Shown piece after piece: positions 7,161-51,528 of a stretch of 64,000 nt of DNA. Within the stretch, counting starts at the first letter, position 1. Every line of letters begins with the position of its first letter. Made by a program: the position numbers and the translations under genes. The DNA lies in contig JAFVOP010000031.1 in assembly GCA_017505745.1 (NCBI GenBank), forward strand, positions 50,712 to 114,711, written 5' to 3'. Below the pieces are notes generated by a model that saw only the letters and a list, made by a program, of their open reading frames with translations, searched no databases and was not told where the DNA came from. The DNA comes from Clostridia bacterium (GTDB lineage: Bacteria; Bacillota; Clostridia; Oscillospirales; CAG-272).

Positions 7161-7303
7161 CAGTTGCCGCTACGGCAATTTGAGCGTTGCTCAAATTGAG
7201 AGCCAAAGCGAATCGCGCTCTAAACCAACCAATTAAGAAAAAAATGTGTGGAAAGTTCTTGAAGGGGGACCGGGGGAAACTTCTTACAAGAAGTTTCCCC
7301 CGG
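7161..7303 (+). repeat. Copy A of a ~145-bp structured intergenic element (core palindromes plus terminal hairpin)
   Basis: Core CAGTTGCCGCTACGGCAATTTGAGCGTTGCTCAAATTGAGAGCCAAAGCGAATCGCGC. Terminal hairpin at 7270-7303. Paralogous copies at 23256-23402 and 54834-54977. Confidence 0.85.
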
Positions 7304-7316
7304 AAAATATTCCGCT

Positions 7317-30407: not shown

Positions 30408-30493
30408 GACATAGTATGAATGGCGTTTCTTTGAAGAGAGATGAACCTCAATATTCCATGTTCCAATATTAATTTCAATTGAGAGGTTGTAGT

Positions 30494-33191: not shown

Positions 33192-33218
33192 TTTTTAGTT
33201 TATTTGGAGGTTGACAAG

Positions 33219-35712: not shown

Positions 35713-36494
35713 TCAAAATTACAAACAAAAAAGCAATATTAAACATCAATCATTTGCTATTTTATAATGGTGAAGATCTTTTCTCCTTGCCGAAGGGTGT
35801 AGTTTTTTACCACGGATTGAACGCGGCACATGTAGAAAAACTAAAAAAAAGACATTCTTTCCATCATGAGCGTGTGCAGTATACGTTAGTCCAAGATATT
35901 TCGGTGGATGAAGAGAAACTTTTTAGTGGATATACCAAAACTTATCAAAATGAAATTCGACGTTGTAGCCAAACAAAGGATATCAAATTTTTTACGAAAG
36001 TCATAAGCAGTGAAGAAAAAAGGCTGTTTGAGTTGTTTAAGCAGACTTATAATGCAATGTTCAATGACAAGCATATAGATATGAAATTCAATAGCCAGTA
36101 TCTTATTCACTTGGCTGAGAACAATTCGTTGGTGTATTCTGTTGCATATGTAAATGGAGCGCCCTCTGTTTTTCATGCATATATTGTGGATGGAGATAGG
36201 GCGCAACTCATGTATTCTACGTCAAATTTGAATGTGGATAAGCAGTTGCGAAACGAGATCGGCAGAAACAATAAAATGCTTCACCACGAGGATATTCTCT
36301 TTTTGAAAAACCGGGGGGTTTCCATCTTGGATTGGGGCGGAATTGGTGATGTCGAAAATCTGTCTGGTATTGCGAAATTTAAAATGGGGTTTGGTGGACA
36401 GGTTGACACGTGTTATCATCTGTTGGTTCCCAACAGTTTGCTTGGTATGTTTGTTGTTCAAGTATGGAAATTAAAGCATCGGAAGAAAAAATGA
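35709..36494 (+). CDS. FemAB-like / Acetyltransf_6-type acyl(aminoacyl)transferase
   Basis: C-terminal ...LHHEDILFLKNRGVSILDWGGIGDVENLSGIAKFKMGFGG resembles the FemX/FemAB-like GNAT-fold family. Assignment is by motif only. Confidence 0.5.
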   Translation: MIKITNKKAILNINHLLFYNGEDLFSLPKGVVFYHGLNAAHVEKLKKRHSFHHERVQYTLVQDISVDEEKLFSGYTKTYQNEIRRCSQTKDIKFFTKVISSEEKRLFELFKQTYNAMFNDKHIDMKFNSQYLIHLAENNSLVYSVAYVNGAPSVFHAYIVDGDRAQLMYSTSNLNVDKQLRNEIGRNNKMLHHEDILFLKNRGVSILDWGGIGDVENLSGIAKFKMGFGGQVDTCYHLLVPNSLLGMFVVQVWKLKHRKKK

Positions 36495-37225
36495 GTAATG
36501 TATTTTATGTAAACGCGGATGATTTTGGGTATTCAGCCCGTGTTAATGAGGCAATTGTTGCATGCTTCAACAAGAAAATTGTGAATCGGACCACCGTGAT
36601 GGTCAATATGCCTTCCTCAGAAAGTGCTCGTTTTTTGGCGAAAGAAAACGGTTTTTTGGATCGCGTGGGTTTGCATATTACTCTTACGGAGGGCCAGCCG
36701 ATTTTAGAGACAACGAGGACAAGTTTTCTTTGCGATAATACTGGATATTTTACAAAGGAAATCCGAAAAAGAAAATACCTTTTTTTCCTAACACCGGCAC
36801 AAAAACAGATTGTGGTGAGTGAAGTAGAAGCACAGATTCAGCGATATGTTTCTGACGGATATACGCTTATGCATGCCGATTCGCATCAGCATGTACACAC
36901 CAACCCGTCCGTTTATTTTGCGATTCGTCCATTATTGAAAAAACATGGATTTAAATCTGTTCGTATATCTCGCAATCTTTTTTCGAGTGTTGGACGAAGT
37001 GTATTAAAAGAACTTTATAAGCGGTTATTCAATACAATTGTAAAGAGGGATTTTAACCGTAAAAATTGTTTTATGGGAGCGATCAGTGAATATGAGGTGG
37101 CAAAGAACCTGGTGTTGAAGGGGGGAAATGTGGAAATCATGGTGCACCCGGATTATTGCAACGGAACTCTTGTTGATAAAACAAACAACATGAACATTGC
37201 TTTGGAGAATTACACGTTCATTTGA
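36491..37225 (+). CDS. YdjC/ChbG-family carbohydrate deacetylase
   Basis: MSNVFYVNADDFGYS...GLHITLTEG...MHADSHQHVH. ATGA overlap with the upstream gene. Confidence 0.75.
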   Translation: MSNVFYVNADDFGYSARVNEAIVACFNKKIVNRTTVMVNMPSSESARFLAKENGFLDRVGLHITLTEGQPILETTRTSFLCDNTGYFTKEIRKRKYLFFLTPAQKQIVVSEVEAQIQRYVSDGYTLMHADSHQHVHTNPSVYFAIRPLLKKHGFKSVRISRNLFSSVGRSVLKELYKRLFNTIVKRDFNRKNCFMGAISEYEVAKNLVLKGGNVEIMVHPDYCNGTLVDKTNNMNIALENYTFI

Positions 37226-37275: not shown

Positions 37276-38343
37276 TTGGAATATTCAAAATTATTTTTCG
37301 TTCTTTTATTGCTTGTGCTGTTTTTGATTGCACGTGTTGCTGAAAAGAGAAATTCAAAATTTTTGTTATTTGTAATCTGTGTAGTTTTGTGCCTGTATTC
37401 TGGGTTGCGTCACATGACGGTGGGAATTGACACAAAAAACTATTACGAGATTATATACAATATCGATCAAGGGTATGGTGTATATACGAACGAAATTGTT
37501 TTTACAGGATTTTGCAAATGGATGATGGAGTTGTTTCATTCAATTCCGCTTATCATTTTCTTGATGTCATCGTTCACTTGTATTTTGTTTGTATTAAGAT
37601 TTTGGGAGTTGCGCGAGCGTTGTAGTTTTCCTTTCATGCTCTTGGTGTTTATGGGATGCTTTTTCTTGCGTTCCATGAATATTATGAGACAGTTTGTTGC
37701 GATCGCTGCCATTTTCTGGGGTACTAGATTTCTGGATCAGCGAAAATATATAAAATATATATTGACTCTTCTGCTGGCAGTATCATTCCACACCTCTGCC
37801 GTGATCGGTTTTGCTATTATGTTTGTATACCTGTTTCGCGACTATCAAAAATCGAAAAAAACAAGATGGATTTTAGGCATTTCTATTGTTCTGGCTCTAA
37901 TTGGAGGCGTTACACTTATTCAAGAAGTTTGGGATCAGTACGACCACTATTTCGAAGATCAAACGGTAGCGCTTGGATTGATGCCTGTTTATAAATTATT
38001 GATTTTTATCGCGACTTGTCTTTTGACCGGTGTTGCGCGCTCCCGCATCACCGTGCCGGAGAGGAGGGCCGCTGCGGAACTCGATAAAACTTCTTCGCTT
38101 TTATACTGTTTAGGTATATTGATTACCTGTTTAGGTTTTTTCTATCCGTTTATGGACAGAATCGGTTTGAGTTTACTGATGTTTGAAATCCCGTTTTGGG
38201 GTCAGGCAATAAAACTGAAGTCGTATCGCTTTTTCTTTGTATTGATGCCGCTGGTCTTTATCGTTTATGAGATTTATTTTCAGCTTTCGGGGAATGGGCT
38301 TGGTATCTTTCCGTATCATACGATTTTCTGGAGGGGATACTGA
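37276..38343 (+). CDS. EpsG-family polysaccharide polymerase (Wzy-like)
   Basis: About 10 hydrophobic helices. N-terminal ...LYSGLRHMTVGIDTKNYYEIY is typical of EpsG. TTG start 6 nt after AGGAGG. Confidence 0.7.
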   Translation: MEYSKLFFVLLLLVLFLIARVAEKRNSKFLLFVICVVLCLYSGLRHMTVGIDTKNYYEIIYNIDQGYGVYTNEIVFTGFCKWMMELFHSIPLIIFLMSSFTCILFVLRFWELRERCSFPFMLLVFMGCFFLRSMNIMRQFVAIAAIFWGTRFLDQRKYIKYILTLLLAVSFHTSAVIGFAIMFVYLFRDYQKSKKTRWILGISIVLALIGGVTLIQEVWDQYDHYFEDQTVALGLMPVYKLLIFIATCLLTGVARSRITVPERRAAAELDKTSSLLYCLGILITCLGFFYPFMDRIGLSLLMFEIPFWGQAIKLKSYRFFFVLMPLVFIVYEIYFQLSGNGLGIFPYHTIFWRGY

Positions 38344-39539
38344 TGGGAGAAAAAAAGAAAATCCTTCATATAACGGGCGTATTGCCGTTGCCACAATTTT
38401 TTGAGACCGAGTTCAAGGAAAAGGACAACGATTATTTGTTCGAGGTTTCTGACGAGTTAGAAACTCGTGGCTATCAGTTTTCATATATTCGTACGTGCGT
38501 TTATTCTAACTGTTTGTTGGCAAAATTAAAACCGAAGTGGAAAATCTATTCTAAGGTGCCGCGCGTTTATGAAGCTAAAGGGCATATGGTGAGGGCAATG
38601 TTTAATCTTACTTTGCCGGGTGCGTTTGGGCTTCCTCTCACTTCCAGGCTTTCCTTGGCACGATATCGCTCGGATTTGAAACAATATAAAGATTTTTCGC
38701 TGATCCATGCACAATACATTTATCCTGCAGGTCTTTATGCATATTATTTGCATCAGATATACAACATTCCGTATGTTCTTACTTTGAGAAGAGCAGATTT
38801 GCAATCCATAGAATCTCCTTTTACAAGGGGAACAACCAAGAAAATTTTGCAAAATGCTGCTTATATCACATGCCCCAGCTTTTCCCATGGAAAATTGTTG
38901 GAGGAAAAAAGCGGATATACTGTGCACCCCGTTTCTCATGGAATTCGAGAGTCCTTTCTTTTTTCTTCTGTTGATGTCAATAAAGTTCCTGTTATCAACG
39001 TGGTCGCTCGTCTTTACGGTTGGAAACGCATAGACCTTCTGTTGGATGCTTTAGCGGATGTGAAAGGAAAGTACACCTTGAATATCATTGGGGACGGAGA
39101 GTGCATGGACGATTTAAAAAGACAAGCTGAAAAAAATTCAATTCCCTGTGATTTTAAAGGATTCATTTCCAATACTGAGACGATTGATTATCTGAAAAGA
39201 GGGGATATTTTTGTTCTTCCCAGCGGTGAAGAAACGCTTGGACGAGCTTATTTAGAGGCATTGGCAACTAGCAATGCGGTAATTGGCGTGAAGAATTCTG
39301 GGGTTTGGGGTTATGTGGACGAGACGGCTATGTTGTTTATGGAAAAGGATTCGGTGGAATCTTTGCGAACTATTTTGCAGTCTCTTTTGGATAATCATGA
39401 ACAAATTGCCTCCTACAAGAAAAAAGGGTATGAAAGTGTAGCCAATGGATTTACTTGGAAAGCAATTGCCGATGAGTATGAAAAGTCCTATGAACAAGCA
39501 ATGATGAAAGAGGGCGAAGAATTTATAAGCCATGAATAA
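38343..39539 (+). CDS. GT-B (family 4-like) glycosyltransferase
   Basis: ...FVLPSGEETLGRAYLEALATSNAVIG (E-x7-E type motif). Confidence 0.7.
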   Translation: MGEKKKILHITGVLPLPQFFETEFKEKDNDYLFEVSDELETRGYQFSYIRTCVYSNCLLAKLKPKWKIYSKVPRVYEAKGHMVRAMFNLTLPGAFGLPLTSRLSLARYRSDLKQYKDFSLIHAQYIYPAGLYAYYLHQIYNIPYVLTLRRADLQSIESPFTRGTTKKILQNAAYITCPSFSHGKLLEEKSGYTVHPVSHGIRESFLFSSVDVNKVPVINVVARLYGWKRIDLLLDALADVKGKYTLNIIGDGECMDDLKRQAEKNSIPCDFKGFISNTETIDYLKRGDIFVLPSGEETLGRAYLEALATSNAVIGVKNSGVWGYVDETAMLFMEKDSVESLRTILQSLLDNHEQIASYKKKGYESVANGFTWKAIADEYEKSYEQAMMKEGEEFISHE

Positions 39540-40998
39540 TACAAATACAGATTTAAAGAAACGAGCATTGAGTGGTTTCGTGTGGAAATTTTCGGAACGC
39601 ATCGCTGCACAGATAGTTTCTTTGATTGTTACCATTGTACTTGCCCGGCTGTTGCTTCCAGAAGATTATAGTGTGGTTAGCATTGTAGCAGTCTTTTTTG
39701 CTTTTGCTGACGTACTTGTTTCTGGCGGCTTGAGTACAGCGCTGATTCAGAAAAAAGACGCAGACCGCTTGGATTATTCTACAATCTTGTACGTTAGTGT
39801 TGGAATTTCGCTGGTTATATACGGAGTCTTTTTTTTCGTTGCACCCTATGTTGCTCGGGTTTACGAGAAGGAGATTTTGGTGGCTGTTATTCGAGTGATG
39901 GGACTGGTTTTGATTCCTAACGCAATCAAGTCTATTCTCTGTGCCTATGTATCCAATTGTTTGGAATTTAAAAAATTCTTTTTTTCAACCATTGGCGGGA
40001 CAGTGATTTCCGGTGTTGTGGGGATTTTGATGGCAAAAGCTGGGCTTGGTCCCTGGGCGCTTGTTGTGCAACAGATGATTAACACGATTGTGGGTACGCT
40101 CATTTTGATTATTGTAACTCGTTTCAAACCAATGCTTGCTTTTTCGTGGGTGCGCTTAAAAGGCCTTTTTCAGTACGGCTGGAAAATATTCGCAACGAAC
40201 ATCATTGACACAATATATAATGAAATTAATCCGCTGATTGTTGGTCTTCGCTATACGCCTGTCGATCTTTCGTATTACTCGAAAGGTCAAAGCTTTCCTA
40301 AACTTATCAACACTACCATGTCGGATACATTTGCTTCTGTTTTGTTTCCAGTAATGTCCAAGGTGCAAGATGATAAGAATCAATTACTGAATATGACAAG
40401 GAGATTTATGCAAATCTCTACCTATTTCGTGTTTCCTATGATGGTGGGTTTTTTTGCTATTTCGGATAATTTTGTGAGCTCTGTTTTGACCGAAAAATGG
40501 ATGCCGGCATCGATGTATATCAGAATTTTTTGTTTAAGCGGAATGTTTACAATCGTTACAAAAGGCAATCTGCAGGTAATCAAAGCTTCCGGTAGAAGCG
40601 ACATTTTGCTTATTTTAGAAATCATTAAAAAAGTACTGTATTTTATTGTGATAGTATTGTTCGTTTTTTTTAGTGAAAGCCCAGAGATTTTCGCCCTTGC
40701 TTCTTTGATCAACAGTTTGATTGCTTTAATGGTTAATTGTATCCCGAATAGAACGCTGATCGGATATCGGTTTCGAAAACAGCTGAAAGATATTGTTCCC
40801 AATCTCTTATTAGCGTGTATCATGGGAGTGGCGGTCTATTTGATGAATTATATAAACCTAACCCCGCTTGTGTTGATGATTTTACAGATTCTTGTGGGTG
40901 GGTTGGTTTATCTTTTTATATCGGCTGTTTTTCGACCCATTGGATTTTTATTAGTTTTTCAATCGATGAAGGATTTTATTGCAAAGCGCAAAGGATAA
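39532..40998 (+). CDS. Wzx-type oligosaccharide flippase (MOP superfamily)
   Basis: 488 aa, about 12-14 TM helices. N-terminal ...LKKRALSGFVWKFSERIAAQIVSLIVTIVLARLL is typical of polysaccharide-biosynthesis flippases. Confidence 0.8.
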   Translation: MNNTNTDLKKRALSGFVWKFSERIAAQIVSLIVTIVLARLLLPEDYSVVSIVAVFFAFADVLVSGGLSTALIQKKDADRLDYSTILYVSVGISLVIYGVFFFVAPYVARVYEKEILVAVIRVMGLVLIPNAIKSILCAYVSNCLEFKKFFFSTIGGTVISGVVGILMAKAGLGPWALVVQQMINTIVGTLILIIVTRFKPMLAFSWVRLKGLFQYGWKIFATNIIDTIYNEINPLIVGLRYTPVDLSYYSKGQSFPKLINTTMSDTFASVLFPVMSKVQDDKNQLLNMTRRFMQISTYFVFPMMVGFFAISDNFVSSVLTEKWMPASMYIRIFCLSGMFTIVTKGNLQVIKASGRSDILLILEIIKKVLYFIVIVLFVFFSESPEIFALASLINSLIALMVNCIPNRTLIGYRFRKQLKDIVPNLLLACIMGVAVYLMNYINLTPLVLMILQILVGGLVYLFISAVFRPIGFLLVFQSMKDFIAKRKG

Positions 40999-41005: not shown

Positions 41006-42292
41006 ATGAGTAAGGTAAAAGAACTTGTCAAAAAAAGCCTTGGCTATGTGCAGCGTCGCATTGCATCGCGAAATGTAACCAAGTTTCAAAAGAGGACAAG
41101 GAAAAGAGTTCAAAGAAAAGAAGCACTGAGCATCGTTTTTTTGATTCAGTTTCCGGAGATGTGGAATTCATATAAAACGATCTACGAGCATTTTTCTGCG
41201 CTGGGAAATGAGGTGTCCCTTTATATATTAGCGGTCCCAAAGCGAGTGAGTGTCGAAAACGGATATGGAACATTCTGTGAGAGAAATGAGGCGTTCGATT
41301 TTTTTAAAAAAAATGGAATTTCGGCAATTGATGCATACGGGAATGGCTCCTGGTTTCCTATTAAGAATTTGACCCCTGATTATATTTTTGTACAGCGTCC
41401 ATATGAGGCACATATGCCCAAGGAGTATTCTCTTTATCGGCTTTCCAAGGCGGGGACTGTGTGTTACGTTCCTTATGGGGGACGAATGACCAAGGGGATT
41501 CATTTGAGTTTGGAGTTTAATCACGCCTTGTTGAACAATGCCTATATGATTTTTGCAGACTGTACAGATAGTTACAATTACATATTAAATAATCCTGGGG
41601 TAAAAAAACGAAAAGTATTTGATATTGGATATCCGCGGTTTGATTTAATCGAATCTCCGGATCGTAAGATTGAAAAGCCGGTCCAAACATTTCTATGGAC
41701 CCCGCGATGGGCGTATGATCAGGTTACTGGGTACGGTCACTTTTTAGATTATTTCGAATGCTTAATGCTGTACTTTGAAACTCATAAGGATTTTAGACTA
41801 ATTATTCGTCCACATCCGTTGATGTTCCCGAATTTTATTCAGAAGGGATTGCTTTCCAATGAGGAATATCAAGGAATCCAAAAAAGGGTGACAGAGGCTA
41901 TCAACGTATCTTTTGATGAAAATGCGGATTACCTAATTACGTTTAAAGAGAGCGATGCATTGATTTCGGATGGATCATCGCTCCTTTTGGAATATTTTGT
42001 GACCGGAAAACCTATTTTGTGTTGCATGTCTTGTTTTGAAGATCCAACTGAAATAACTCAACGGCTCCAAGAGTGTTTTTACACGATATCTAATGCAGAT
42101 CAGCTTATGGAGGCGATTGTTCATATTACAGAAAATGATGACTATAGGGTTGAACAACGTATAGCACTGATTAAAAAAATCAAGCATGGAAGTTTTCAGA
42201 TCGGTAGGGCAATTGTAAAAGAAATTCTTGAGGATGCAACCGCTGAAAAAATTATGGAGGCGTATGATTATGAGCGAAGTAAAGGTGATTGA
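41006..42292 (+). CDS. TagB/TagF-family CDP-alditol phosphotransferase-like protein
   Basis: ...FLWTPRW...IRPHP...SDALISDGSSLLLEYFVTGKPIL resembles the CDP-glycerol glycerophosphotransferase family C-terminal domain. Confidence 0.6.
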   Translation: MSKVKELVKKSLGYVQRRIASRNVTKFQKRTRKRVQRKEALSIVFLIQFPEMWNSYKTIYEHFSALGNEVSLYILAVPKRVSVENGYGTFCERNEAFDFFKKNGISAIDAYGNGSWFPIKNLTPDYIFVQRPYEAHMPKEYSLYRLSKAGTVCYVPYGGRMTKGIHLSLEFNHALLNNAYMIFADCTDSYNYILNNPGVKKRKVFDIGYPRFDLIESPDRKIEKPVQTFLWTPRWAYDQVTGYGHFLDYFECLMLYFETHKDFRLIIRPHPLMFPNFIQKGLLSNEEYQGIQKRVTEAINVSFDENADYLITFKESDALISDGSSLLLEYFVTGKPILCCMSCFEDPTEITQRLQECFYTISNADQLMEAIVHITENDDYRVEQRIALIKKIKHGSFQIGRAIVKEILEDATAEKIMEAYDYERSKGD

Positions 42293-43109
42293 GGGGGCTG
42301 ATTTCAGAAAAATGCAATTGCTCCAGGTCGAAATGCTTGTAGAGCTTGACCGCGTGTGTCGCGCAAACCACATTAAGTATCAAATTTGGGCAGGAACGCT
42401 TTTGGGAGCGGTTCGACATAAGGGTTATATCCCGTGGGATGACGATGCCGACGTGGTGATGCTTCGAGAGGAGTATGAAAAATTTAAGAAGTGTATTGAT
42501 CAACTGAATCCGGACATTTGCTTTTATCAGGATCATGAAACAGATCCCGAGTACAGATGGGGTTATGCTAAGTTAAGAAGAACGGGAACTACCTATGTGA
42601 GACTTGGACAGGAGCACATTAAGTGTCAGACTGGTGTGTTCATCGATATATTCCCATTGGATGATGTTCCACGAACAACATTGGGACAAATGTTACAGGA
42701 TTTTCATTGTTTTATTCTCAGAAAAATCTTATGGTCGGAAGTTGGAAAATACCAGGAACACGGGCTGTTAAAGTGGTGGTATACACTACTTTCGAAAATT
42801 CCGGTACGGTTTGTTTTCAAGCAACTTGATTTTTATGCCAAAAAGAGTAGCAATCATTCACCCAATATGGTAAGAACACTTTGCTATACGTCGATTGGTA
42901 AACTTTACCGTAAGCATCCGATTAAGCAACGATACGGTATGCCAAAGCGATGGTTTACTAATCTTGAAACCTTTGAGTTTGAAGGTAGAATGTTTTGGGG
43001 CTTGAAGGATTACGATGAGTATCTTACTTTTTCCTTCGGCGATTATATGCAACTTCCCCCGGAAGACAAACGGGTACAGCATGCTCCTGTTTCAGACTAT
43101 AAATTTTAG
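42270..43109 (+). CDS. LicD-family phosphotransferase
   Basis: ...LLGAVRHKGYIPWDDDADVVM...FIDIFPLD. Confidence 0.8.
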   Translation: MSEVKVIEGADFRKMQLLQVEMLVELDRVCRANHIKYQIWAGTLLGAVRHKGYIPWDDDADVVMLREEYEKFKKCIDQLNPDICFYQDHETDPEYRWGYAKLRRTGTTYVRLGQEHIKCQTGVFIDIFPLDDVPRTTLGQMLQDFHCFILRKILWSEVGKYQEHGLLKWWYTLLSKIPVRFVFKQLDFYAKKSSNHSPNMVRTLCYTSIGKLYRKHPIKQRYGMPKRWFTNLETFEFEGRMFWGLKDYDEYLTFSFGDYMQLPPEDKRVQHAPVSDYKF

Positions 43110-43118
43110 GAGTCATTC

Positions 43119-43616
43119 ATGAATTTGTATTTAAGGCAGCTATCTGTAGATGATGGCAAAGATGTTTATGCTATGCTTAAGGATATTGAAGAAGTGGAAA
43201 ATTCGTTTACGAATCCTGTTAAACAGATGTCATATGCGCAGTATCGTGAATGGTTAATTCAACAGGATAATTGGCATAGGGGTGTCAATCTTCCGGATGG
43301 CTACAGTGCTCAAACCATATACTGGTTGATGATGGACGAAATCCCCGTTGGAATTGGAAAGATTCGTCATCGTTTGACTGAAAGTTCAAGAATCAACGGT
43401 GGAAATATTGGATATGCCATTGCAACTGCTTATCGATGTCGTGGATTGGGAACGGAGCTTTTGCGATTACTGTTGAAAAAAGCCAAGCAAATTTCATGTT
43501 CGGAAATCCTGTTAACTGTAGACAAAAATAATTTTGCTTCCAGAAGTGTAATTGAAAAAAATGGAGGCAGGTTTATAAAAGAAGATGACCAAAGGTGGTT
43601 TTTTTCTGTTTACTAA
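43119..43616 (+). CDS. GNAT-family N-acetyltransferase
   Basis: ...GYAIATAYRCRGLGTELLRLLLKKA (acetyl-CoA binding R-x-x-G-x-G motif). Confidence 0.75.
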   Translation: MNLYLRQLSVDDGKDVYAMLKDIEEVENSFTNPVKQMSYAQYREWLIQQDNWHRGVNLPDGYSAQTIYWLMMDEIPVGIGKIRHRLTESSRINGGNIGYAIATAYRCRGLGTELLRLLLKKAKQISCSEILLTVDKNNFASRSVIEKNGGRFIKEDDQRWFFSVY

Positions 43617-43643
43617 TTTTTTAATGTAGAGGTTTGAATTATT

Positions 43644-44702
43644 ATGTATTATTTGGATGTTAAAATTGAGAAGTTGCATCGTGTTTTTGATCAACATGAG
43701 AGAAAAGATTATTTGAGATTGGATCTGAATGAAAATCCGGGGGGGCTTCCTCAGGAATTTATTGATGAGGTGCTTACGGGAATTACTCCTCAGTTTGTTG
43801 CACAGTATCCAGAAACACTTCACTTTACAGAGGTTTTGTCAAATCATCTTGGAACAGATATTTCCAATTTGTGTCTAGTAAATGGTTCTGCGGAAGGAAT
43901 TAGATATATTATTCAGGCTTTTACTTCAAAAAACGGTAGAATTGTTGGAGTTGTTCCCTCTTATTTTATGTTCCAAATATATTCCGAAATGTACGATAGA
44001 AATTTTGTAAAGGTTCCTTACGAAGAGGATCTGTCTATGAATATTGATAAAATAATTGCTGAACTTACTGAAGAAACACAGCTTTTAATTCTTTTGAACC
44101 CAAACAATCCTATGGGAAATGTCTACACGGAAGATGAGTTTGAAAAAATAATGACTGTTGCCAGAGAAAAGCATGTTACTGTTTTGGTTGATGAGGCATA
44201 TCATTATTTCTATCCTAAAACATTTATTCGCTATGCACTACAGGAGGAACATGTATTTATTACTCGAACTTTCTCCAAGTTGTTTTCACTCGCGGGTTGT
44301 CGCTTGGGATATGTTGTTGGCTGGGCAGAAGGAATAAAGATGGTGCAAAAAATGTGCACGCCGCATAATACCAACGCCTTTGCAATGAAGTTTGCTGAGA
44401 AGATTTTGACTACTCCTGGAATGTTGGAATCCTTGATTTCGAAATTCGAGCAGGGGAGAAGGTTTTTGATTGATACATTGGATGCAAATGGATATGAGCA
44501 TAAGGGTGAAACTGGAAACTTTATATTTATCAAAACCAATACCGATGCACAACAAATCGTGGAGCGAATGAAGGAAGAAAAGAAAATTTTGATAAAGGCG
44601 TATTCGAATGTAGGTAAGTTTGGAACCTGTTTGCGTGTTTCGATCGGCGAACCGCAATTTATGAAACGATTTACCGATGCACTTTTTGAACTTGACCGCT
44701 AA
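43644..44702 (+). CDS. Class I/II PLP aminotransferase-fold enzyme (HisC / CobD-like)
   Basis: LRLDLNENP..., LLNPNNPMG, ITRTFSKLFSLAGCRLGY (PLP-binding Lys). Confidence 0.75.
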   Translation: MYYLDVKIEKLHRVFDQHERKDYLRLDLNENPGGLPQEFIDEVLTGITPQFVAQYPETLHFTEVLSNHLGTDISNLCLVNGSAEGIRYIIQAFTSKNGRIVGVVPSYFMFQIYSEMYDRNFVKVPYEEDLSMNIDKIIAELTEETQLLILLNPNNPMGNVYTEDEFEKIMTVAREKHVTVLVDEAYHYFYPKTFIRYALQEEHVFITRTFSKLFSLAGCRLGYVVGWAEGIKMVQKMCTPHNTNAFAMKFAEKILTTPGMLESLISKFEQGRRFLIDTLDANGYEHKGETGNFIFIKTNTDAQQIVERMKEEKKILIKAYSNVGKFGTCLRVSIGEPQFMKRFTDALFELDR

Positions 44703-44719
44703 AAAAATAGGAGGCCCCT

Positions 44720-46060
44720 ATGAAAAAGGTTATAACGTATGGTACTTACGATTTATTGCACCATGGTCATGTGAAGCTGTTGGAAAGAGCGAAGGCGTTA
44801 GGGGACTATTTGATTGTTGGTGTGACCGCAGACGATTTTGATGTATCTCGAGGGAAAATCAATGTACAGCAGTCTTTGATCGAAAGAGTAGAAGCTATTC
44901 GTGCAACAGGAATTGCCGATGATATTATTGTTGAGGAATATGAGGGACAAAAAATTGATGATATCAAGCGATATAACATTGATATATTTACTGTTGGATC
45001 GGATTGGATTGGGAAGTTCGATTATCTGAATGAATTTTGTCAAGTAATATATCTTCCTCGCACCGAAGGGATTTCTAGTTCTGAGCTTCGTTCGGAGGAT
45101 CGTCGATTGCGTTTAGGGCTTGTTGGTGAATATCAATATATTAACAAGTATGTTAAGGAGGCATCTGTTGTAAATGGTTTGACTGTTTCTCACATATACG
45201 CAGAACATACCGATAATATTGAGAAAGAAAACAAATGTTTAGTGACAAGTTTAGATTACGAGGCTTTTTTGAATGAAGTAGATGCGGTTTTTATTGCCTC
45301 GCGACCAGAGCTACACTATGAGCAGATCAAGAGTGCTTTGACAAAGAAAAAGCATATATTGTGTGAATCTCCGATTGCTTTGAGCGAGGAGAAATGTATC
45401 GAGTTGTTTGCGTTAGCGGAGCAAAATGATTGTGTGCTAATGGATGCTATCAAAACTGCATATGCAACCGCTTTTTCTAGATTGCTGTTATTGGCTAAAA
45501 CTGGGAAAATAGGTAAGGTGGTATCTATAGACGCCACTTGCACTAGTTTGATGAATCGAGAACGTATAAAGGCGTTAAATAATGAATGGAAAAGCATTTG
45601 TGCGTGGGGGCCAACCGCTTTGCTTCCAATATTTCAGTTACTTGGGACTAATTTCATAAAGAAAGATATTGTTACCAAGTACCTATCGAAAACAAAAAAA
45701 TTCGATGCATATACAAAAATCAATTTTGTATATCCAAACGCGACTGCAACAGTGCAAATTGGCAAAGGGGTTAAGTCTGAAGGAGATCTTGTGATTATGG
45801 GAACGGAAGGATTTTTCTATGTACCATCTCCGTGGTGGAAAACAGAATATTTTGAGGTTCGGTATGAAAATCCAGCAGATAATAAACGTATTTTCTATCA
45901 ACTGGAGGGTGAAGGCATTCGAAATGAATTGGTTTCCTTTGTTAGATCGATTCAAGGCTTGAGAACTGTAATCCATATAGACAAGAATGTATCTGTCCGT
46001 ATTTCTAAAATAATAGAGGATTTTGAAACTGGCAAAGATGTAACGGAAATTGTATTTTGA
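44720..46060 (+). CDS. Fusion: TagD-like alditol-phosphate cytidylyltransferase (aa 1-~128) plus Gfo/Idh/MocA-type oxidoreductase (aa ~130-446)
   Basis: N-terminal MKKVITYGTYDLLHHGHVKLLERAKALGDYLIVGV...YLPRTEGISSSELR (HxGH and RTEGIS motifs of TagD). C-terminal ...KKHILCESPIALSEEKCIELFALAEQ (the EKP-type motif of the Gfo/Idh/MocA family). One uninterrupted ORF. Confidence 0.8.
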   Translation: MKKVITYGTYDLLHHGHVKLLERAKALGDYLIVGVTADDFDVSRGKINVQQSLIERVEAIRATGIADDIIVEEYEGQKIDDIKRYNIDIFTVGSDWIGKFDYLNEFCQVIYLPRTEGISSSELRSEDRRLRLGLVGEYQYINKYVKEASVVNGLTVSHIYAEHTDNIEKENKCLVTSLDYEAFLNEVDAVFIASRPELHYEQIKSALTKKKHILCESPIALSEEKCIELFALAEQNDCVLMDAIKTAYATAFSRLLLLAKTGKIGKVVSIDATCTSLMNRERIKALNNEWKSICAWGPTALLPIFQLLGTNFIKKDIVTKYLSKTKKFDAYTKINFVYPNATATVQIGKGVKSEGDLVIMGTEGFFYVPSPWWKTEYFEVRYENPADNKRIFYQLEGEGIRNELVSFVRSIQGLRTVIHIDKNVSVRISKIIEDFETGKDVTEIVF

Positions 46061-46082
46061 GATTTCGTCTATAATGGCGTAT

Positions 46083-47033
46083 GCGATTATTGGGTTGGAT
46101 GTGTCAATGACTGTTTATATAGGAAGGAATATCGTTTGGCGGAGATCGAAGCACTCGCAGTTAAGCCTCTGGGTTTTGCGGGGACGTTTGTAAAGGAAAA
46201 TTTTTCCGACCGTACATTGATTGACTAGCTATTTTCCTAACATTAATTTACCGTTGTCCGGAATTTTGCGATTCAGGTGAGAGTACGCTATTCAATTATG
46301 AATCTGGATGTGTATATTGAAGGCAATATTATCGAATTGTATAATGCTATTTAAACCTTTCGAGCATTAACGAACATCGAACATCCAGTGGAGCAGTTGG
46401 CCTATGTATCTTTATCTTCGGTTTATAGGGGAAATGAGATAGTTCCGTATCCCACCAGCGATAAAGTGGATACTCCTGTGTCTTTACGCGGCAACCTAGA
46501 AGGCAAATAAATTGTTAGCACGCACCTATTCCATTTTATATAATATTTCTTCAACAGTGATTTGTTTTTTAAGATTTATGGACCGGCGAGATGTCCAGAT
46601 GTGTCGTGTTTTGACTTTACAAACAAGTTGATAAAAGGAAAAATTATCTGGCTTCTCAACCGCGGAAATTACATGTGCGATTTCACTTATGTGGATGATA
46701 TTGTAGGGAGCTATACGGGTGATACAAGGTGTCCCGAAACAATTGGGAGAAGAGGATGATATACCGCTTCCGCCCTATCGCGCATACAATATTGGAAACA
46801 GCAGTCCTGAAAATTTGTTGGATTATGTGAACATTTCGCGCGAGGGTTGGATGTGTGTGGAAGTGTTGTCTATAAATTATAATATTGGAGCCTAGAAGGA
46901 ATCGGGTTCTATGTAACCCGGAGATATCACATATACAGATGCCTCTGTACTCGAACAAAACTTTGAGTTTAAGCCTCTGCCCTCTTTGCATGAGGACTTT
47001 TGAGAATTTGTGGATAATACAAAGGATTTATAA
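46083..47033 (+). pseudogene. NAD-dependent UDP-glucuronate 4-epimerase-like gene, heavily decayed (5'-truncated, multiple frameshifts and stops)
   Basis: Fragments in three frames: AIIGLDV..., ...LAYVSLSSVYRGNEIVPYPTSDKVDTPVSL, FFKIYGPARCPD...NRGNYMCDFTYVDDIV, ...YNIGNSSPENLLDYV. Together they follow the order of SDR epimerase motifs. Confidence 0.7.
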
Positions 47034-47134
47034 CTTATAACCCTAGAATGGATAACCATGCAGAAATCAGTTGCTATGGGGAAGCACTCGTAGGGACTGC
47101 AGAAACGCATATAAAAAAGAAAGAGAGAAAAAAC

Positions 47135-48319
47135 ATGAAAATTGCAGTTGCTGGAACAGGCTATGTTGGCCTTTCTATTGCTATTCTTTTGGCACAACAC
47201 AACCAAGTTACCGCGGTTGATATTATTCCTGACAAGGTGGACATGATCAACCAAAAAAAGTCTCCCATTGTTGACAAGGAGATTGAGGAGTTTTTGGCGA
47301 CCAAGACTTTGAATTTGATTGCTACAACTGATGCTGCATCGGCATACAAAAATGCCGATATGGTTATTATATCGACTCCTACAAACTATGATTCGAACAA
47401 AAACTATTTCGATACCAGCTCTGTGGAGTCAGTTATCGAGCAGGTCATGGAGGTGAATCCCGATGCCATTATGGTTGTCAAATCTACCGTTCCAGTTGGT
47501 TTCACTGAGAAGATTCGGGAGGACCTTTGTTGCGACAACATTCTGTTCAGTCCCGAGTTCCTTCGAGAGGGAAGAGCGCTCTATGACAATCTTTATCCGA
47601 GCCGAATTATCGTAGGCGTGCCTGCAAAGAACGATAGATTGCATAAAGCGGCAGAGAAATTTGCCGATCTGCTTCGGCAGGGAGCTGCCAAAGAAAATAT
47701 TGAGGTTCGTTATATGAATCCCACAGAGGCAGAGGCGGTCAAGTTGTTTGCAAACACCTATCTTGCACTACGTGTGTCGTTCTTTAATGAGTTAGATACT
47801 TATGCGGCTGTCAGAGAGCTTGACACCAAGTCGATTATCGAGGGCGTTGGGTTGGATCCGAGAATTGGCAATCACTACAATAATCCTTCCTTTGGTTACG
47901 GCGGTTATTGTCTGCCGAAGGATACCAAACAGTTGCTTGCCAATTATAGAGATGTTCCACAAAATATCATTTCTGCTATTGTTTCCGCCAATAGTACGCG
48001 AAAGGATTTTATTGCAGATCAGATTGTTTCCAAGCATCCCAAGATAGTTGGGGTATATCGGCTGACGATGAAAGCGGGAAGCGACAACTTTCGTCAATCT
48101 TCGATTCAGGGGGTTATGAAAAGAATCAAGGCCAAAGGAATCGAGGTTATCGTATATGAGCCGACAATGAAAGAGAATGTATTTTTTAATAGTCGAGTCA
48201 TTCGTGATCTTGCAAAATTCAAGGAGCTTTCCGATGTGATTATTGCGAACCGATATCACGAAGATATTGCTGATGTAATTGATAAGGTTTATACTAGAGA
48301 TCTGTATTTTAGAGATTGA
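47135..48319 (+). CDS. ugd: UDP-glucose 6-dehydrogenase
   Basis: [20 protein letters not shown]...VKSTVPVGF...[21 protein letters not shown]...GGYCLPKD. Confidence 0.9.
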
Positions 48320-48338: not shown

Positions 48339-49514
48339 ATGAATGCGGCGGAACGATTTGAGCATTTTTATAAGAAGCCTCCACAGAAAATTGCGTTCAC
48401 CCCATATCGTGTTTGCCCAATTGGCGCACATAGCGATCACCAACTTGGAAAAATTACAGGCTTTGCTATCAACAAAGGGATATATATTGCATATGGTCCT
48501 GAGGAAAATGGCGTTATTGAGATTCAGTCTCTTCAATTTGATAAGCGTGTACAATGGCATGTAGAGGCAACCCCAAAAATTCGTGAGAATGATTGGGCTG
48601 ATTATCTTCGTGGCGCCACAATCGCTCTACACAAGCGGTATGCGCTCCGTCGAGGACTTTGTGCTGTGATTGAGGGGGAGCTTCCAATTGGCGGATTGTC
48701 TTCCTCCGCTGCCGTGATTATTACATTCCTTTCGGCTCTTTGCACGATAAATAAAATTGAGTTGACGGCCGAGGAACTTATTACAATTTCCAAGGAAGCT
48801 GAAAACAACTATGTTGGTGTTTCTTGCGGCAAGTTGGATCAATCCTGTGAAGTATATTGCAAAAAAGATCATTTGCTATACATGGATTTAAAAGATGATA
48901 GTTATGAACTCATTCCGCAACATTCTAGTATGAAACAGCACAAAATCGCCATCTTTTTTAGTGGGATAGAGCGTAGTCTGACTGGCTCTGCTTTCAATAT
49001 GCGTGTGGATGAGTGTAGAAGTGCGGCGTATGCGCTGAAAGCATATGCGGGAATGGAGTACGGAAATTTCGAAGAAACAAATCTGCGCGATGTGCCGTAT
49101 GAAGTGTTTTTAAATTTTCGTGAGCGCTTGCCAGAAAATTGGAGAAAGCGTGCCGAGCATTGGTATACGGAGTATAGACGTGTAGAGATGGGTGTTGAAG
49201 CATGGAAACGAGGCGATATTGAGGAATTTGGCCGATTGTCCTTTGAAAGCGGATGTTCTTCCATCTACAATTGGGAGACCGGATCTTCAGAATTGAAGGA
49301 ACTCTATGAGATCATGACGCGAACCGACGGTATTTACGGAGGACGTTTTTCCGGTGCGGGCTTCAAGGGGTGCTGCATGGCATTAATTGATCCAGCGTAT
49401 GAAGAGTATATCAAGGAAATGGTAAAAAAAGAGTATTTAAAAATTTTTCCGCATTTGGAGGGAAGATACTCTGCCCATATTTGCGAAAGTGCGGATGGAG
49501 TACAGTTGAATTGA
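48339..49514 (+). CDS. GHMP-family sugar-1-kinase (galactokinase-related, atypical substrate motif)
   Basis: GHMP motif PIGGLSSSAAV. The N-terminal substrate motif reads PYRVCPIGAHSDHQLG instead of the canonical GalK G-R-x-N-L-I-G-E-H-x-D-Y. Confidence 0.7.
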   Translation: MNAAERFEHFYKKPPQKIAFTPYRVCPIGAHSDHQLGKITGFAINKGIYIAYGPEENGVIEIQSLQFDKRVQWHVEATPKIRENDWADYLRGATIALHKRYALRRGLCAVIEGELPIGGLSSSAAVIITFLSALCTINKIELTAEELITISKEAENNYVGVSCGKLDQSCEVYCKKDHLLYMDLKDDSYELIPQHSSMKQHKIAIFFSGIERSLTGSAFNMRVDECRSAAYALKAYAGMEYGNFEETNLRDVPYEVFLNFRERLPENWRKRAEHWYTEYRRVEMGVEAWKRGDIEEFGRLSFESGCSSIYNWETGSSELKELYEIMTRTDGIYGGRFSGAGFKGCCMALIDPAYEEYIKEMVKKEYLKIFPHLEGRYSAHICESADGVQLN

Positions 49515-49526: not shown

Positions 49527-50267
49527 ATGAAATGTTTGATTCTTGCGGCAGGATATGCGACTAGACTGTATCCATTGACCGAAAACTTTCCCAAGCCACT
49601 TTTGACCGTGGGGGGAAAAGCCATTCTTGACTGGCTGGTGGACGATATTGCTCTTTCTGGTATGGTTGACGAATATTTTGTTATATCCAACCATAAATAT
49701 TGGCGCTATTTTTATGAATGGAAAAAAACTAAAAAACAGAAAATCATCATTGTGGATGACGAAACGAATACGAATGATACACGTTTGGGAGCGGTTAAGG
49801 ATATTCAATTTGCAATTGATCAACGGAAAATTGATGATGACATGCTTGTAATTGCCGGAGACAATATTTTGGATTTTAGTTTGACAAAGTTTATTTCATA
49901 TGCAAAAGAAAAAAAAACCTCTTGTATTATGCGCTACTATGAGCCAGACGAGCAAAAACTTTTGAAATGTGGTGTTGTTACAATTGATTCAAAAGATCGA
50001 GTTTTAAATATGACAGAAAAATCCCCTAATCCAGCAACCCACTGGTGTTGCCCCCCGTTTTATTACTATACTCGAGAAGATGCTAAGTTGGTGAAAAAAG
50101 GAATTGATAGCGGTTGTGGCATCGATGCTCCAGGAAGTTTTATTGCGTGGCTTTGTAAGCAGACCGATATTCATGCCATGGAGATGCTAGGGAAGCGGTA
50201 TGATATTGGTAACTTGGAAAGTTATGAAAAGGTGAAAGCAGAATATTGCGGTATTACAGTATCTTGA
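49527..50267 (+). CDS. Sugar-1-phosphate nucleotidyltransferase
   Basis: MKCLILAAGYATRLYPLTENFPKPLL (G-x-G-t-R-l motif). Confidence 0.8.
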   Translation: MKCLILAAGYATRLYPLTENFPKPLLTVGGKAILDWLVDDIALSGMVDEYFVISNHKYWRYFYEWKKTKKQKIIIVDDETNTNDTRLGAVKDIQFAIDQRKIDDDMLVIAGDNILDFSLTKFISYAKEKKTSCIMRYYEPDEQKLLKCGVVTIDSKDRVLNMTEKSPNPATHWCCPPFYYYTREDAKLVKKGIDSGCGIDAPGSFIAWLCKQTDIHAMEMLGKRYDIGNLESYEKVKAEYCGITVS

Positions 50268-50328
50268 CTGTAGTATTGGTTTGAAACAGGCGATCTCTGT
50301 GGTCGCTGTTTGGGGAAGGAGCAAAAAA

Positions 50329-51528
50329 ATGGAAGTACAAATTGAAGACATCATGCTTGCTCTGATCCGCAAGGTTGTTTGCGATAGAGAAATCAGCGCA
50401 ACGGTTGAAAATGCCATTATTCCGGAGGTTTTTCCGCAGTTATATGTGCTTTCCAAATCTCACGATATGGCGCATATCGTAGCACATGGACTTTCAGAAC
50501 TAGACCTGTTGGGAGAAGATGATATTTCACAGAAGTTTCAAAAGCAAAAAATGTTGGCGCTTTATCGTTATCAAAAGATGAGTTATGAGCTGGAGAGGAT
50601 CTGCCATGTATTAGAGAACGCCAAAATACCTTTTATCCCATTAAAAGGGGCTGTGATCCGTCAATATTATCTTCAACCCTGGATGCGTACCAGCTGCGAT
50701 ATTGATGTGCTTGTTCATGAGATACATTTAAAATCCGCGATTGATGCTCTGACAGACCAATTGCATTACAAAAATGGGGGACAAAGTTCCCACGATGTTT
50801 CTTTGTTTTCTAAAAGTGGAGTTCACGTAGAGTTGCATTATGATTTGATTGAGAAAATTCGTTATCCTACTGCTGTAAAGTTGCTTTCCAAAGTATGGAT
50901 TTATGCGGAACCTCAAAGCGGGTTCATGTATCACCATCGGTTGAAAGAAGAGATGTTTTACTTTTATCACACCGTACATATGGCGAAGCATTTTGAAAAT
51001 GGTGGGTGCGGAGTGCGAATGGTGGTAGATCAGTGGATTTTGGATCATTGCGTGTCTTGCAATATTGACAACCGTAATTCTTTAATTTTGGAGGGCAATT
51101 TAAAGCAGTTTAATGACTTGGCAAAAGCCTTGGCAGACGTATGGTTTTCGAATGAAAGGGGGAATGAATTAACTAAGGCGATGTCTGCATACATTATAAC
51201 AGGTGGGATTTACGGAAACAGGGAAAATAGCGTGGCAGTAAAACGCTCAAAAGAAGGGCGCTTCTGGAGATATGTCATGTCACGTCTTTTTTTACCATAT
51301 GATACTCTTTCTAGACAATACCCTATTCTTCAAAGAAAAAAATGGTTACTCCCTTTTATGCAGGTTTGTAGATGGTTTCGTTTGTTCCGCAAAGAGAGTA
51401 TGAAACGCACTGTTCGTGAGTTGAAAACGAATCGGAATATGTCAAAAGAGAAAATTCTCAGTACAACGGATCTTTTGAGAAATCTTGGGCTGAATGAAAA
51501 TGCCAACTCGTTAGACAAAAAATGTTGA
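50329..51528 (+). CDS. Uncharacterised nucleotidyltransferase family protein (NTP_transf_5-like)
   Basis: ATG 50329 with AAGGAG SD. Sequence ...IPFIPLKGAVIRQYYLQPWMRTSCDIDVLVHE...HVELHYDL resembles the PF14907-type family (recognised by eye). Confidence 0.6.
   Translation: MEVQIEDIMLALIRKVVCDREISATVENAIIPEVFPQLYVLSKSHDMAHIVAHGLSELDLLGEDDISQKFQKQKMLALYRYQKMSYELERICHVLENAKIPFIPLKGAVIRQYYLQPWMRTSCDIDVLVHEIHLKSAIDALTDQLHYKNGGQSSHDVSLFSKSGVHVELHYDLIEKIRYPTAVKLLSKVWIYAEPQSGFMYHHRLKEEMFYFYHTVHMAKHFENGGCGVRMVVDQWILDHCVSCNIDNRNSLILEGNLKQFNDLAKALADVWFSNERGNELTKAMSAYIITGGIYGNRENSVAVKRSKEGRFWRYVMSRLFLPYDTLSRQYPILQRKKWLLPFMQVCRWFRLFRKESMKRTVRELKTNRNMSKEKILSTTDLLRNLGLNENANSLDKKC

Follow-up and report, generated by a model that had tools for sequence, protein, structure and literature searches.

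A TagD-Gfo fusion without dehydrogenase hallmarks is linked to aminotransferases in polysaccharide loci of gut bacteria and may supply a CDP-activated amino-alcohol

What does a bacterium build with an aminotransferase, an acetyltransferase, two putative phospho-alcohol transferases and a cytidylyltransferase fused to a dehydrogenase-like domain, all encoded side by side? The question is raised by a block of five genes in a 64,000-nucleotide stretch of DNA from a Clostridia bacterium (Oscillospirales, CAG-272; contig JAFVOP010000031.1 of assembly GCA_017505745.1), the whole of which is called the window here. An earlier note, made from the sequence alone, had listed the genes as TagF-like, LicD, GNAT, HisC/CobD-like and a fusion of a TagD-type cytidylyltransferase to a Gfo/Idh/MocA-type oxidoreductase. 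The five open reading frames (ORFs) do lie consecutively and intact on one strand, with neighbours overlapping or 10-30 nt apart, and Pfam and NCBIfam agree with the assignments (Table 1). Our reading, to which we give a probability of roughly 45%, is that the block is a substituent module of a Wzx/Wzy-dependent surface polysaccharide locus, with the aminotransferase and the fusion as its core, and that it would lead from dihydroxyacetone phosphate (DHAP) through serinol phosphate and cytidine diphosphate (CDP)-serinol to a transferred, N-acetylated phospho-serinol, the Gfo half having decayed. The broader proposal of the note, that these genes form one module for a CDP-activated, phosphodiester-linked substituent bearing an amine, is very probably right: the near-constant presence of an aminotransferase, the interchangeability of its two families and the occurrence of LicD-GNAT fusions all point to a single module for a nitrogen-containing phospho-substituent, made up of LicD, an aminotransferase, the cytidylyltransferase fused to a decayed Gfo half and, in some cases, GNAT.

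The evidence that carries this answer is comparative. We examined 160 loci from two independent scans, namely 80 genome loci and a set of metagenome contigs seeded with canonical sequences; motif states were taken from a single alignment of all 160, and the counts are confined to loci with 1.5 kb or more on each side. Fusions that resemble that of the window (window type) lack the GxG of the dinucleotide-binding loop, and an aminotransferase gene is present in 60 of their 61 loci, directly adjacent in 54. Canonical fusions, which have both GxG and the EKP lysine and nearly all have Tyr299, are accompanied by an aminotransferase in none of 23 loci (Fisher's exact p = 1e-19 for presence in the two types). 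The partner in the 61 window-type loci is a class V aminotransferase 40 times and a HisC-like enzyme 19 times, and its gene usually overlaps the fusion or sits a few bases away. When the 80 genome loci were searched for ORFs with the window and class V proteins, a class V gene was found adjacent to the fusion in 46 and a HisC-like gene in 19; in most of the remainder an aminotransferase gene lay elsewhere in the locus or the locus was cut by the end of the contig. This result, that the aminotransferase tracks the fusions devoid of GxG, is new.

The two partners are not related. In the first loci inspected, a 357-residue class V aminotransferase lies directly upstream of the fusion, in the slot that the HisC-like gene has in the window. 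The class V partner matches PDB 3f0h with E = 1.3e-156; this entry, a structural-genomics "aminotransferase" with no assigned function, is its only solved structure. It is distant kin of AGXT, PhnW/AepZ and SerC, and reaches up to 168 bits with the AepZ model TIGR03301, the cut-off of which is 360.8. Given that two unrelated aminotransferase families occupy the same slot, they argue that a transamination really takes place and that its small substrate is the same for both. Each family includes members that act on phosphate- or phosphonate-bearing carbonyls, and the substrate of HisC itself, imidazole-acetol phosphate, shares the skeleton of DHAP.

The HisC-like enzyme of the window carries the motifs NPNNPMG, DEAY and TFSK, the last with the lysine that binds pyridoxal phosphate (PLP). 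Its best NCBIfam model is that of HisC (TIGR01141), at 230.7 bits, short of the cut-off of 276.55; with CobD (TIGR01140) it scores lower, 150.8 bits, and again misses the cut-off (290.55). The closest PDB matches are histidinol-phosphate aminotransferases (E = 1.5e-30), and the context of the gene is a polysaccharide locus, not histidine biosynthesis. The family is a tight one (77-82% identity over 352 residues, in gut Clostridia), and both of the homologues whose context was inspected adjoin a TagD-Gfo fusion. In the fusion, the cytidylyltransferase half shares about 50% identity with Bacillus subtilis TagD (PDB 1coz, E = 8e-37) and has the signatures HHGH (HxGH) at residues 14-17 and RTEGISSS at 114-121, together with R44/K46. 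It scores 117.1 bits with the equivalog TIGR01518, below the cut-off of 165.4; compared by family, it reaches 130 bits as TagD and at most 52 bits as an ethanolamine-phosphate or choline-phosphate cytidylyltransferase (ECT or CCT). None of the NCBIfam equivalogs covers the fusion or either aminotransferase family.

The LicD protein covers its profile in full (positions 1-226 of 227) and has the acidic motif WDDDAD. Its true start is the ATG at 42270, as in identical metagenome contigs, so that the gene overlaps the stop of the TagF-like gene. Judged by their sequences, LicD, the aminotransferase and the cytidylyltransferase all have intact domain identities and catalytic motifs, and LicD is the likely transferase of the activated substituent. 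The TagF-like protein, which the identical contigs also carry as a called 428-residue gene, is a candidate for a second transferase acting on the same CDP donor. Its Glyphos_transf match is weak and partial, extending over profile positions 154-342 of 367 and thus over the C-terminal half only (gathering score 22.1), and its NCBIfam matches are below threshold (surf_polysacc 36 bits, TarL 19 bits). The GNAT protein is probably the enzyme that N-acetylates the amine of the substituent.

The surveyed loci associate both LicD and GNAT with the module. LicD occurs in at least 40 of the 61 window-type loci. In Eisenbergiella massiliensis the gene order is LicD, a 486-residue LicD-GNAT fusion, the TagD-Gfo fusion and a HisC-like gene, and the GNAT of the window is 53% identical to the C-terminal half of that LicD-GNAT protein, to which it is, on this comparison, orthologous. 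Window-type GNATs were found in three of the 80 genome loci (L019, L029 and L088), always together with a HisC-type aminotransferase, and a second, different GNAT family of 266 residues occurs in 10 of 76 window-type loci. Recurring GNATs and the LicD-GNAT fusion thus argue that acetylation is an optional but recurrent accessory of the cassette, as fits an amine on the transferred group. It is worth adding that the LicD-GNAT fusion lies at 6141-7601 in the E. massiliensis-type contigs (L008-L010), and that in one of these (L010) an IS21-family element is inserted in the neighbouring LicD gene.

If the aminotransferase is so closely tied to one form of the fusion, what distinguishes that form? 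The fold is not at issue. The profile of the Gfo half matches PDB 3e9m with E = 7e-25 over its residues 3-314, and Foldseek gives template modelling (TM) scores of 0.82 to 3evn and 3e9m, about 0.8 to KijD10 and 0.78 to dihydrodiol dehydrogenase. The AlphaFold model behind the Foldseek scores was made from 12 sequences, has a mean predicted local distance difference test (pLDDT) score of 69.6 with a poor N-terminal half, and was used for fold assignment only. A two-domain Gfo/Idh/MocA fold (Rossmann plus C-terminal alpha/beta) is thereby confirmed for residues about 127-446, of which Pfam aligns only the part corresponding to profile positions 25-117.

What has changed is the active site. The dinucleotide loop reads GLVGEYQYI in the window, GxVGES in the consensus of its subfamily and GxxGxGRIA in canonical relatives, and the GxGxxG/A motif is absent from the window and from all 80 genome loci; the degenerate Rossmann motif on which the earlier note had remarked is therefore a property of the whole window-type subfamily. 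The EKP site is CESP in the window, CE[S/A/T/P]P in the window type and CEKP in canonical fusions, the last form occurring in 0 of the 80 genome loci. The segment GGG...[DE]xGx[YH] has become AWGPTALLP in the window type (AWGPTA where canonical fusions have ELGSYP). In the window A295 and T299 replace Glu and Tyr, P196 replaces His and S276 replaces Lys. We take H196, K217, E295 and Y299 to be the equivalents of His79, Lys97, Asp176 and Tyr180, the catalytic residues according to mutagenesis of dimeric dihydrodiol dehydrogenase and its relatives. When 119 canonical and 198 window-type sequences were compared in window numbering, nearly all of the discriminating positions fell in the Gfo half: 152 (canonical S, window type N), 196 (H, P), 276 (K, S), 290-291 (GG, W[NK]), 299 (Y, T), 306 (K, Q) and 394 (K, Q). 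The cytidylyltransferase half differs between the types only conservatively, with E to D at position 38 and N to D at 39. Common to both types are the motifs GVKSEG, PWWKT[ED]YFE and G[ED]G[IL]R. The Gfo half of the window is a probable non-redox relic or scaffold domain.

The canonical relatives suggest what the fusion originally did. The fusion of Escherichia coli E04 (WP_095530512) is 46% identical to that of the window and keeps all the hallmarks (GIIGTGRIA, LCEKP and GGGSFYELGSYPL). It adjoins a TagF-like gene, with a HAD (haloacid dehalogenase) hydrolase gene two genes downstream, after wzx, and its locus contains no HisC-like or class V aminotransferase. Four more canonical fusions, from Providencia alcalifaciens, Anaerosalibacter massiliensis and two metagenome contigs, likewise have an adjacent Glyphos_transf gene and no aminotransferase of either family, and that of Providencia also has a HAD hydrolase gene two genes downstream. 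Across the survey, a TagF-like gene is adjacent to the canonical fusion in 8 of 23 loci and present in 11 of 23, as against 10 of 61 window-type loci. Canonical Gfo domains also occur in larger architectures (TagD-Gfo-GDPD, Metallophos-TagD-Gfo with or without GDPD, LicD-Gfo-GDPD and TagD-TagD-Gfo; representatives P0251, P0257, P0258, P0259, P0388 and P0245; GDPD is a glycerophosphodiesterase), and these suggest that scavenging of glycerophosphodiesters may feed the pathway. The TagF-like neighbours and the fusions to GDPD and LicD tie the family to glycerol-phosphate chemistry.

There are further forms besides these two types. Fusions with GxG and E-[IV]-P but no Tyr have an aminotransferase in 0 of 10 loci. 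E-T-P fusions that keep GxG, His and Tyr and have Lys at 276 have none, and E-T-P fusions with Gln or Thr at 276 mostly do have one, of class V. The sequences can be arranged in an apparent decay series, from EKP, to ETP with K276 and no aminotransferase, to ETP with Q276 or T276 and an aminotransferase, to the fully degenerate form with an aminotransferase, and we read the E-T-P forms as a decay that would have begun when the aminotransferase arrived. The subclass with GxG and E-I-P (L105-L138 and other metagenome loci) falls outside both the reductase and the pseudo-dehydrogenase model.

The E. coli E04 and Providencia loci (L092, NZ_CM143912, 869726-893890; L093) deserve a separate remark. 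Both combine the fusion with TagF-like, wzx, HAD hydrolase and dTDP-3-acetamido-sugar genes, and the two are 81% identical in protein sequence. The E. coli block lies between IS5 copies and was found in one of 5426 complete genomes; it may be an O-antigen or capsule module for glycerol phosphate, perhaps glycerol 2-phosphate (Gro-2-P), imported from Providencia. A link to E. coli O33, which has a Gro-2-P O-antigen, was considered and rejected: among the E. coli genomes a related fusion occurs only in E04.

These observations can be assembled into a pathway. If the Gfo half is not a dehydrogenase, the module makes no ketone of its own, and the ketone must be a pre-existing metabolite, of which DHAP is the obvious one. 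The HisC-like enzyme would convert DHAP to serinol phosphate. There is a precedent for this reaction in Campylobacter jejuni Cj1437, which converts DHAP to (S)-serinol phosphate (PMC11800397). TagD acts on glycerol 3-phosphate, with which serinol phosphate is isosteric, and from serinol phosphate and CTP the cytidylyltransferase half would therefore be expected to form CDP-serinol. LicD would then transfer phospho-serinol to the repeat unit, possibly with the TagF-like protein acting also or instead, and GNAT would acetylate the amine, either before this transfer or after it. The Gfo half of canonical relatives would reduce the same keto-phosphate to glycerol phosphate, feeding the cytidylyltransferase and the TagF-like glycerophosphotransferases; in the lineage of the window, transamination would have replaced reduction, and the Gfo domain would have been retained in a structural or substrate-binding role. 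The earlier note had proposed CDP-serinol or its N-acetylated form as the product, with CDP-2-glycerol as an alternative, and the first of these proposals is still the best candidate; its suggestion that the set as a whole arrives there by oxidation followed by transamination finds no support. We consider it somewhat less than an even chance that CDP-serinol or CDP-N-acetylserinol is an unrecognised donor for a new phosphodiester-linked amino-alcohol on capsules and exopolysaccharides, with the fused dehydrogenase a pseudo-enzyme. CDP-serinol finds no mention that we could trace in the open-access literature.

Several points weigh against this reading. All of its substrates and products are inferred from comparative genomics, and the loci compared were selected by similarity and lack phylogenetic independence. 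The differences between the cytidylyltransferase halves are conservative and so give no sequence sign that an amino-alcohol phosphate has replaced glycerol phosphate as the substrate, and our searches of the open-access literature yielded no case of serinol in phosphodiester linkage. With 51-60% identity to the window and many invariant residues, the Gfo half remains strongly conserved and could be catalytic through non-canonical residues. 1,5-Anhydro-D-fructose reductase, which has G-x-S for G-x-G, binds NADPH, and degeneracy of the glycine motif alone is compatible with NAD(P) binding. Finally, some aminotransferase-linked fusions keep GxG, His196 and Tyr299, and a route by oxidation and then transamination could operate in these forms or have been the ancestral state.

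Such a route can be written at the nucleotide level: TagD would make CDP-glycerol, the Gfo half would oxidise C2 through non-canonical residues to give CDP-dihydroxyacetone, the aminotransferase would convert this to CDP-serinol, and GNAT would acetylate it. In its favour are the physical fusion, which suggests consecutive steps, the conservation of the Gfo half with its GVKSEG, PWWKT.YFE and GEG.R motifs, the ordinary TagD-like appearance of the cytidylyltransferase half, and those aminotransferase-linked fusions that retain GxG, His196 and Tyr299. We nevertheless think it quite unlikely, because window-type Gfo domains have lost the second Gly, the EKP Lys, the Tyr, the His and the acidic residue together. 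Aminotransferases of the HisC and PhnW/AGXT types, moreover, are not known to act on nucleotide-linked ketones, the amination of which is normally carried out by the DegT family. Another possibility is that the fusion does no more than supply CDP-glycerol or CDP-2-glycerol to the TagF-like protein and LicD, with the aminotransferase and GNAT serving some other step such as the synthesis of an amino sugar. The resemblance to B. subtilis TagD, the frequent position of canonical relatives beside TagF-like genes and the TagF-like gene in the window itself are all as this would predict, and pneumococcal wchX and gtp1-3 make and transfer CDP-2-glycerol (PMC1391919). An unrelated sugar step is, however, hard to fit to an aminotransferase that stands close to the fusion in the window type and is missing in the canonical type; the locus has its own DegT aminotransferase for amino sugars, the HisC-like and class V enzymes are not sugar-nucleotide aminotransferases, and GNAT is elsewhere fused to LicD. 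We therefore regard this explanation as very unlikely.

The module may alternatively make a different amine. Decarboxylation of phosphoserine (Ser-P) or phosphothreonine (Thr-P) would give ethanolamine phosphate, and then CDP-ethanolamine, or aminopropanol phosphate, and the phospho-carbonyl transaminated may be another than DHAP, for example glyceraldehyde 3-phosphate, which would give 3-amino-1,2-propanediol phosphate. The HisC/CobD fold does include phospho-amino-acid decarboxylases (Cj1436, PMC11800397), the TagD superfamily holds an ethanolamine-phosphate cytidylyltransferase (a match to PDB 3elb), and enzymes of the PhnW type use aldehydes. Still, the HisC-like protein scores well above its CobD value with the HisC model, the class V enzymes with which it is interchangeable belong to transaminase and not decarboxylase subfamilies, and the cytidylyltransferase is far nearer to TagD than to ECT or CCT, which favours a substrate shaped like glycerol phosphate; a different amine is on balance unlikely. 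A phosphonate pathway based on 2-aminoethylphosphonate (AEP) was also considered, having been raised by the AepZ-like class V partner and a thiamine pyrophosphate (TPP) enzyme in one locus, and was rejected: that TPP enzyme is MenD-like. In the loci inspected, moreover, the gene lists showed neither a phosphoenolpyruvate (PEP) mutase nor a phosphonopyruvate decarboxylase.

How widely is the module distributed? The earlier note had called the activation set, with the fusion in it, unusual; for the fusion this does not hold. A search of 5.8 billion proteins returned more than 8000 homologues of the fusion; the best 120 matches all have the same architecture, with lengths of 441-464 residues and about 59-67% identity, apart from an identical copy. 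Representatives of clusters at 50% identity number 537 with E <= 1e-30. When one genome was scanned for each species, the carriers numbered at least 580, from several phyla and mainly from gut or rumen, including Lachnospiraceae, Oscillospiraceae, Prevotella, Bacteroides intestinalis, Alistipes and Muribaculaceae, as well as Elusimicrobiaceae, Spirochaetales, Lentisphaeria and Selenomonadales. Cultivable carriers include Eisenbergiella massiliensis, B. intestinalis AF14-32, Segatella sinensis CLA-AA-H174 and Clostridium sp. MSJ-11. By these numbers the fusion is very common.

With at least 580 species genomes and thousands of metagenomic variants, the cassette is among the commoner unassigned modules of such loci; the decoration of surface polysaccharides in gut commensals influences how they are recognised by the immune system, how sensitive they are to phages and how they colonise. 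If a CDP-amino-alcohol is made, it would be a new activated donor for bacterial glycobiology, the phospho-substituent, zwitterionic or N-acetylated, would likewise be new, and the orphan crystal structure 3f0h would gain a function. If CDP-serinol is the donor, decoration of this type would occur in hundreds of gut and rumen species of Bacillota, Bacteroidota, Elusimicrobia and Spirochaetes, and the family would offer a clear case of a transaminase replacing a reductase step with the dead domain retained. The fusion family also forms an apparent, datable series of the decay of a dehydrogenase domain after recruitment of an aminotransferase.

The genes around the block (Table 1) make up a Wzx/Wzy-type polysaccharide locus, every gene of which is on the + strand, with a strongly positive GC skew over approximately 30000-52000. 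The island of about 30-52 kb has a GC (guanine plus cytosine) content of about 38-41%, against 51-61% in the flanks, and is bordered by an HTH_38 gene and a SpoVT gene, from which onward the sequence is again of host type. This suggests that a low-GC polysaccharide island was gained horizontally from a low-GC donor. Eleven metagenome contigs carry the polysaccharide locus unchanged, with the five-gene block identical.

Table 1. Features of the polysaccharide locus and its borders (window coordinates)
Feature	Coordinates	Strand	Profile match
HTH_38 gene (island border)	29438-30238	-	
DegT aminotransferase	30479-31711	+	
Bac_transf initiating transferase	31708-32442	+	
GT2 (glycosyltransferase)	32439-33191	+	
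UDP-sugar dehydrogenase	33204-34544	+	
GT4 (glycosyltransferase)	34573-35712	+	
261-aa protein	35709-36494	+	Acetyltransf_6 (FemAB-like) 19.5 bits, sub-threshold
YdjC	36488-37225	+	
EpsG-type polymerase	37276-38343	+	
GT4 (glycosyltransferase)	38343-39539	+	
Wzx flippase	39532-40998	+	
Five-gene block	41006-46060	+	
TagF-like CDP-alcohol phosphotransferase, 428 aa	41006-42292	+	Pfam Glyphos_transf 36.3 bits
LicD-family phospho-alcohol transferase, 279 aa	42270-43109	+	Pfam LicD 139.4 bits
GNAT acetyltransferase, 165 aa	43119-43616	+	Pfam Acetyltransf_3 57 bits, Acetyltransf_1 44 bits
HisC-like PLP aminotransferase, 352 aa	43644-44702	+	Pfam Aminotran_1_2 145 bits
Fusion, TagD-type cytidylyltransferase half, residues 1-126	44720-45097	+	
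Fusion, Gfo/Idh/MocA-fold half, residues about 127-446	45098-46060	+	
Gene debris, about 1 kb	46060-47048		
Ugd	47048-48319	+	PRK15057 611 bits, under model cut-off
GalK-like kinase	48339-49514	+	below every GalK equivalog cut-off
NTP_transferase	49527-50267	+	
NTP_transf_5	50281-51528	+	
SpoVT gene (island border)	51975-52532	opposite to locus	

Some of the neighbouring genes are of interest in their own right. The debris between the fusion and ugd holds only short, broken ORFs, the translations of which resemble the C-terminal half of an NAD-dependent sugar epimerase spread over several frames (FFKIYGPARCPD...CDFTYVDDIV and PPYRAYNIGNSSPENLLDYVNI, with PGDITYTDASVLEQ in another frame); the identical metagenome contigs hold the same debris, with one 58-residue ORF called in it, and it is probably a decayed UDP-glucuronate 4-epimerase pseudogene. 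The Ugd-like protein is the second nucleotide-sugar dehydrogenase of the locus, and the presence of two implies uronic acids in the polymer. The galactokinase-like GHMP kinase and the NTP_transferase directly after it look like a salvage-type pair for sugar-1-phosphate activation dedicated to the locus. The identical contigs also conserve the 261-residue protein between GT4 and YdjC, a possible transferase of an amino acid or acyl group to the repeat unit. In related loci, a polysaccharide pyruvyl transferase paired with or fused to an FrhB/4Fe-4S protein lies near the cassette in 12 of 76 window-type loci (L004, L005, L011, L074 and others).

It remains to compare the module with known systems. 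The earlier note knew of no characterised pathway with this fusion, and we found none with the cassette. The CDP-glycerol pathway of teichoic acid synthesis (TagD/TarD with TagF/TagB) shares with it the close similarity of the TagD half, including HxGH and RTxGIS, and a Glyphos_transf gene in the block. It differs in that the TagD of the window is fused to a Gfo fold, falls below the TIGR01518 cut-off and is almost obligatorily paired with a PLP aminotransferase, and in that LicD, not TagF, is the commonest transferase in related loci. The bifunctional CDP-ribitol synthases (Bcs1/Acs1 of Haemophilus influenzae; TarI-TarJ) consist of a reductase and a cytidylyltransferase, and so also couple, sometimes by fusion, an enzyme that converts a keto-phosphate to a cytidylyltransferase that activates the product. 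Canonical TagD-Gfo fusions probably work by the same logic, although with a TagD-type cytidylyltransferase and a Gfo/Idh/MocA domain in place of an IspD-type cytidylyltransferase and a short- or medium-chain dehydrogenase/reductase (SDR/MDR); in the window the reductase half lacks the catalytic residues and an aminotransferase is present instead.

In the pathways of WbpB/WbpE/WbpD and GnnA/GnnB, which act on UDP-sugars, there is the same trio of Gfo-fold protein, PLP aminotransferase and N-acetyltransferase, and it was on the Wbp logic that the earlier note had modelled the set. WbpB and GnnA, however, keep the EKP lysine and the dinucleotide motif, and WbpE and GnnB are aminotransferases of the DegT type, whereas the partners in the cassette are HisC-like or class V. 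The Gfo half of the window has neither GxG nor the EKP lysine, nor the catalytic Tyr, His and acid, and this logic is disfavoured. Phosphonate decoration (AepX/AepY/AepZ with a nucleotidyltransferase and a LicD-like protein) is alike in the AepZ/PhnW-like class V partner of most related loci and in the LicD-type transfer of a small amine activated by CMP or CDP.

Cj1437 and Cj1436 of C. jejuni are HisC/CobD-like, as the earlier note remarked. What Cj1437 offers for the system proposed here is its reaction: a PLP enzyme makes a small phospho-amino-alcohol. In HS:2 both are PLP enzymes for capsule decoration, Cj1436 converting Ser-P to ethanolamine phosphate (PMC11800397). There the product is amide-ligated to glucuronate by an ATP-grasp enzyme and then dephosphorylated, and the system has no cytidylyltransferase, LicD or phosphodiester linkage. 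In the locus of the window we saw no Cj1438-type ATP-grasp amide ligase.

The nearest named module is the pneumococcal Gtp system. Wang et al. (2010, J Bacteriol 192:5506) reportedly described a CDP-2-glycerol pathway encoded by wchX-gtp1-gtp2-gtp3 in Streptococcus pneumoniae 23F and serogroup 15. It resembles the block in being a module of a capsule locus, in which a dehydrogenase and a nucleotidyltransferase are joined by a third enzyme and by a transferase of glycerol phosphate (PMC1391919, PMC3493582). The product names are dehydrogenase, nucleotidyl transferase and phosphotransferase, the last being Gtp3 (PMC3493582); compared by these names only, Gtp3 is a phosphotransferase and not an aminotransferase, and the product is glycerol 2-phosphate. 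A closer analogue of Gtp may be the canonical fusion that E. coli E04 and Providencia have together with a HAD hydrolase gene. Activation of an alcohol as its CDP derivative, followed by transfer by LicD or TagF, belongs to a class of pathway that is already known; the elements that would be new are the donor, which was not predicted, and the pseudo-dehydrogenase domain.

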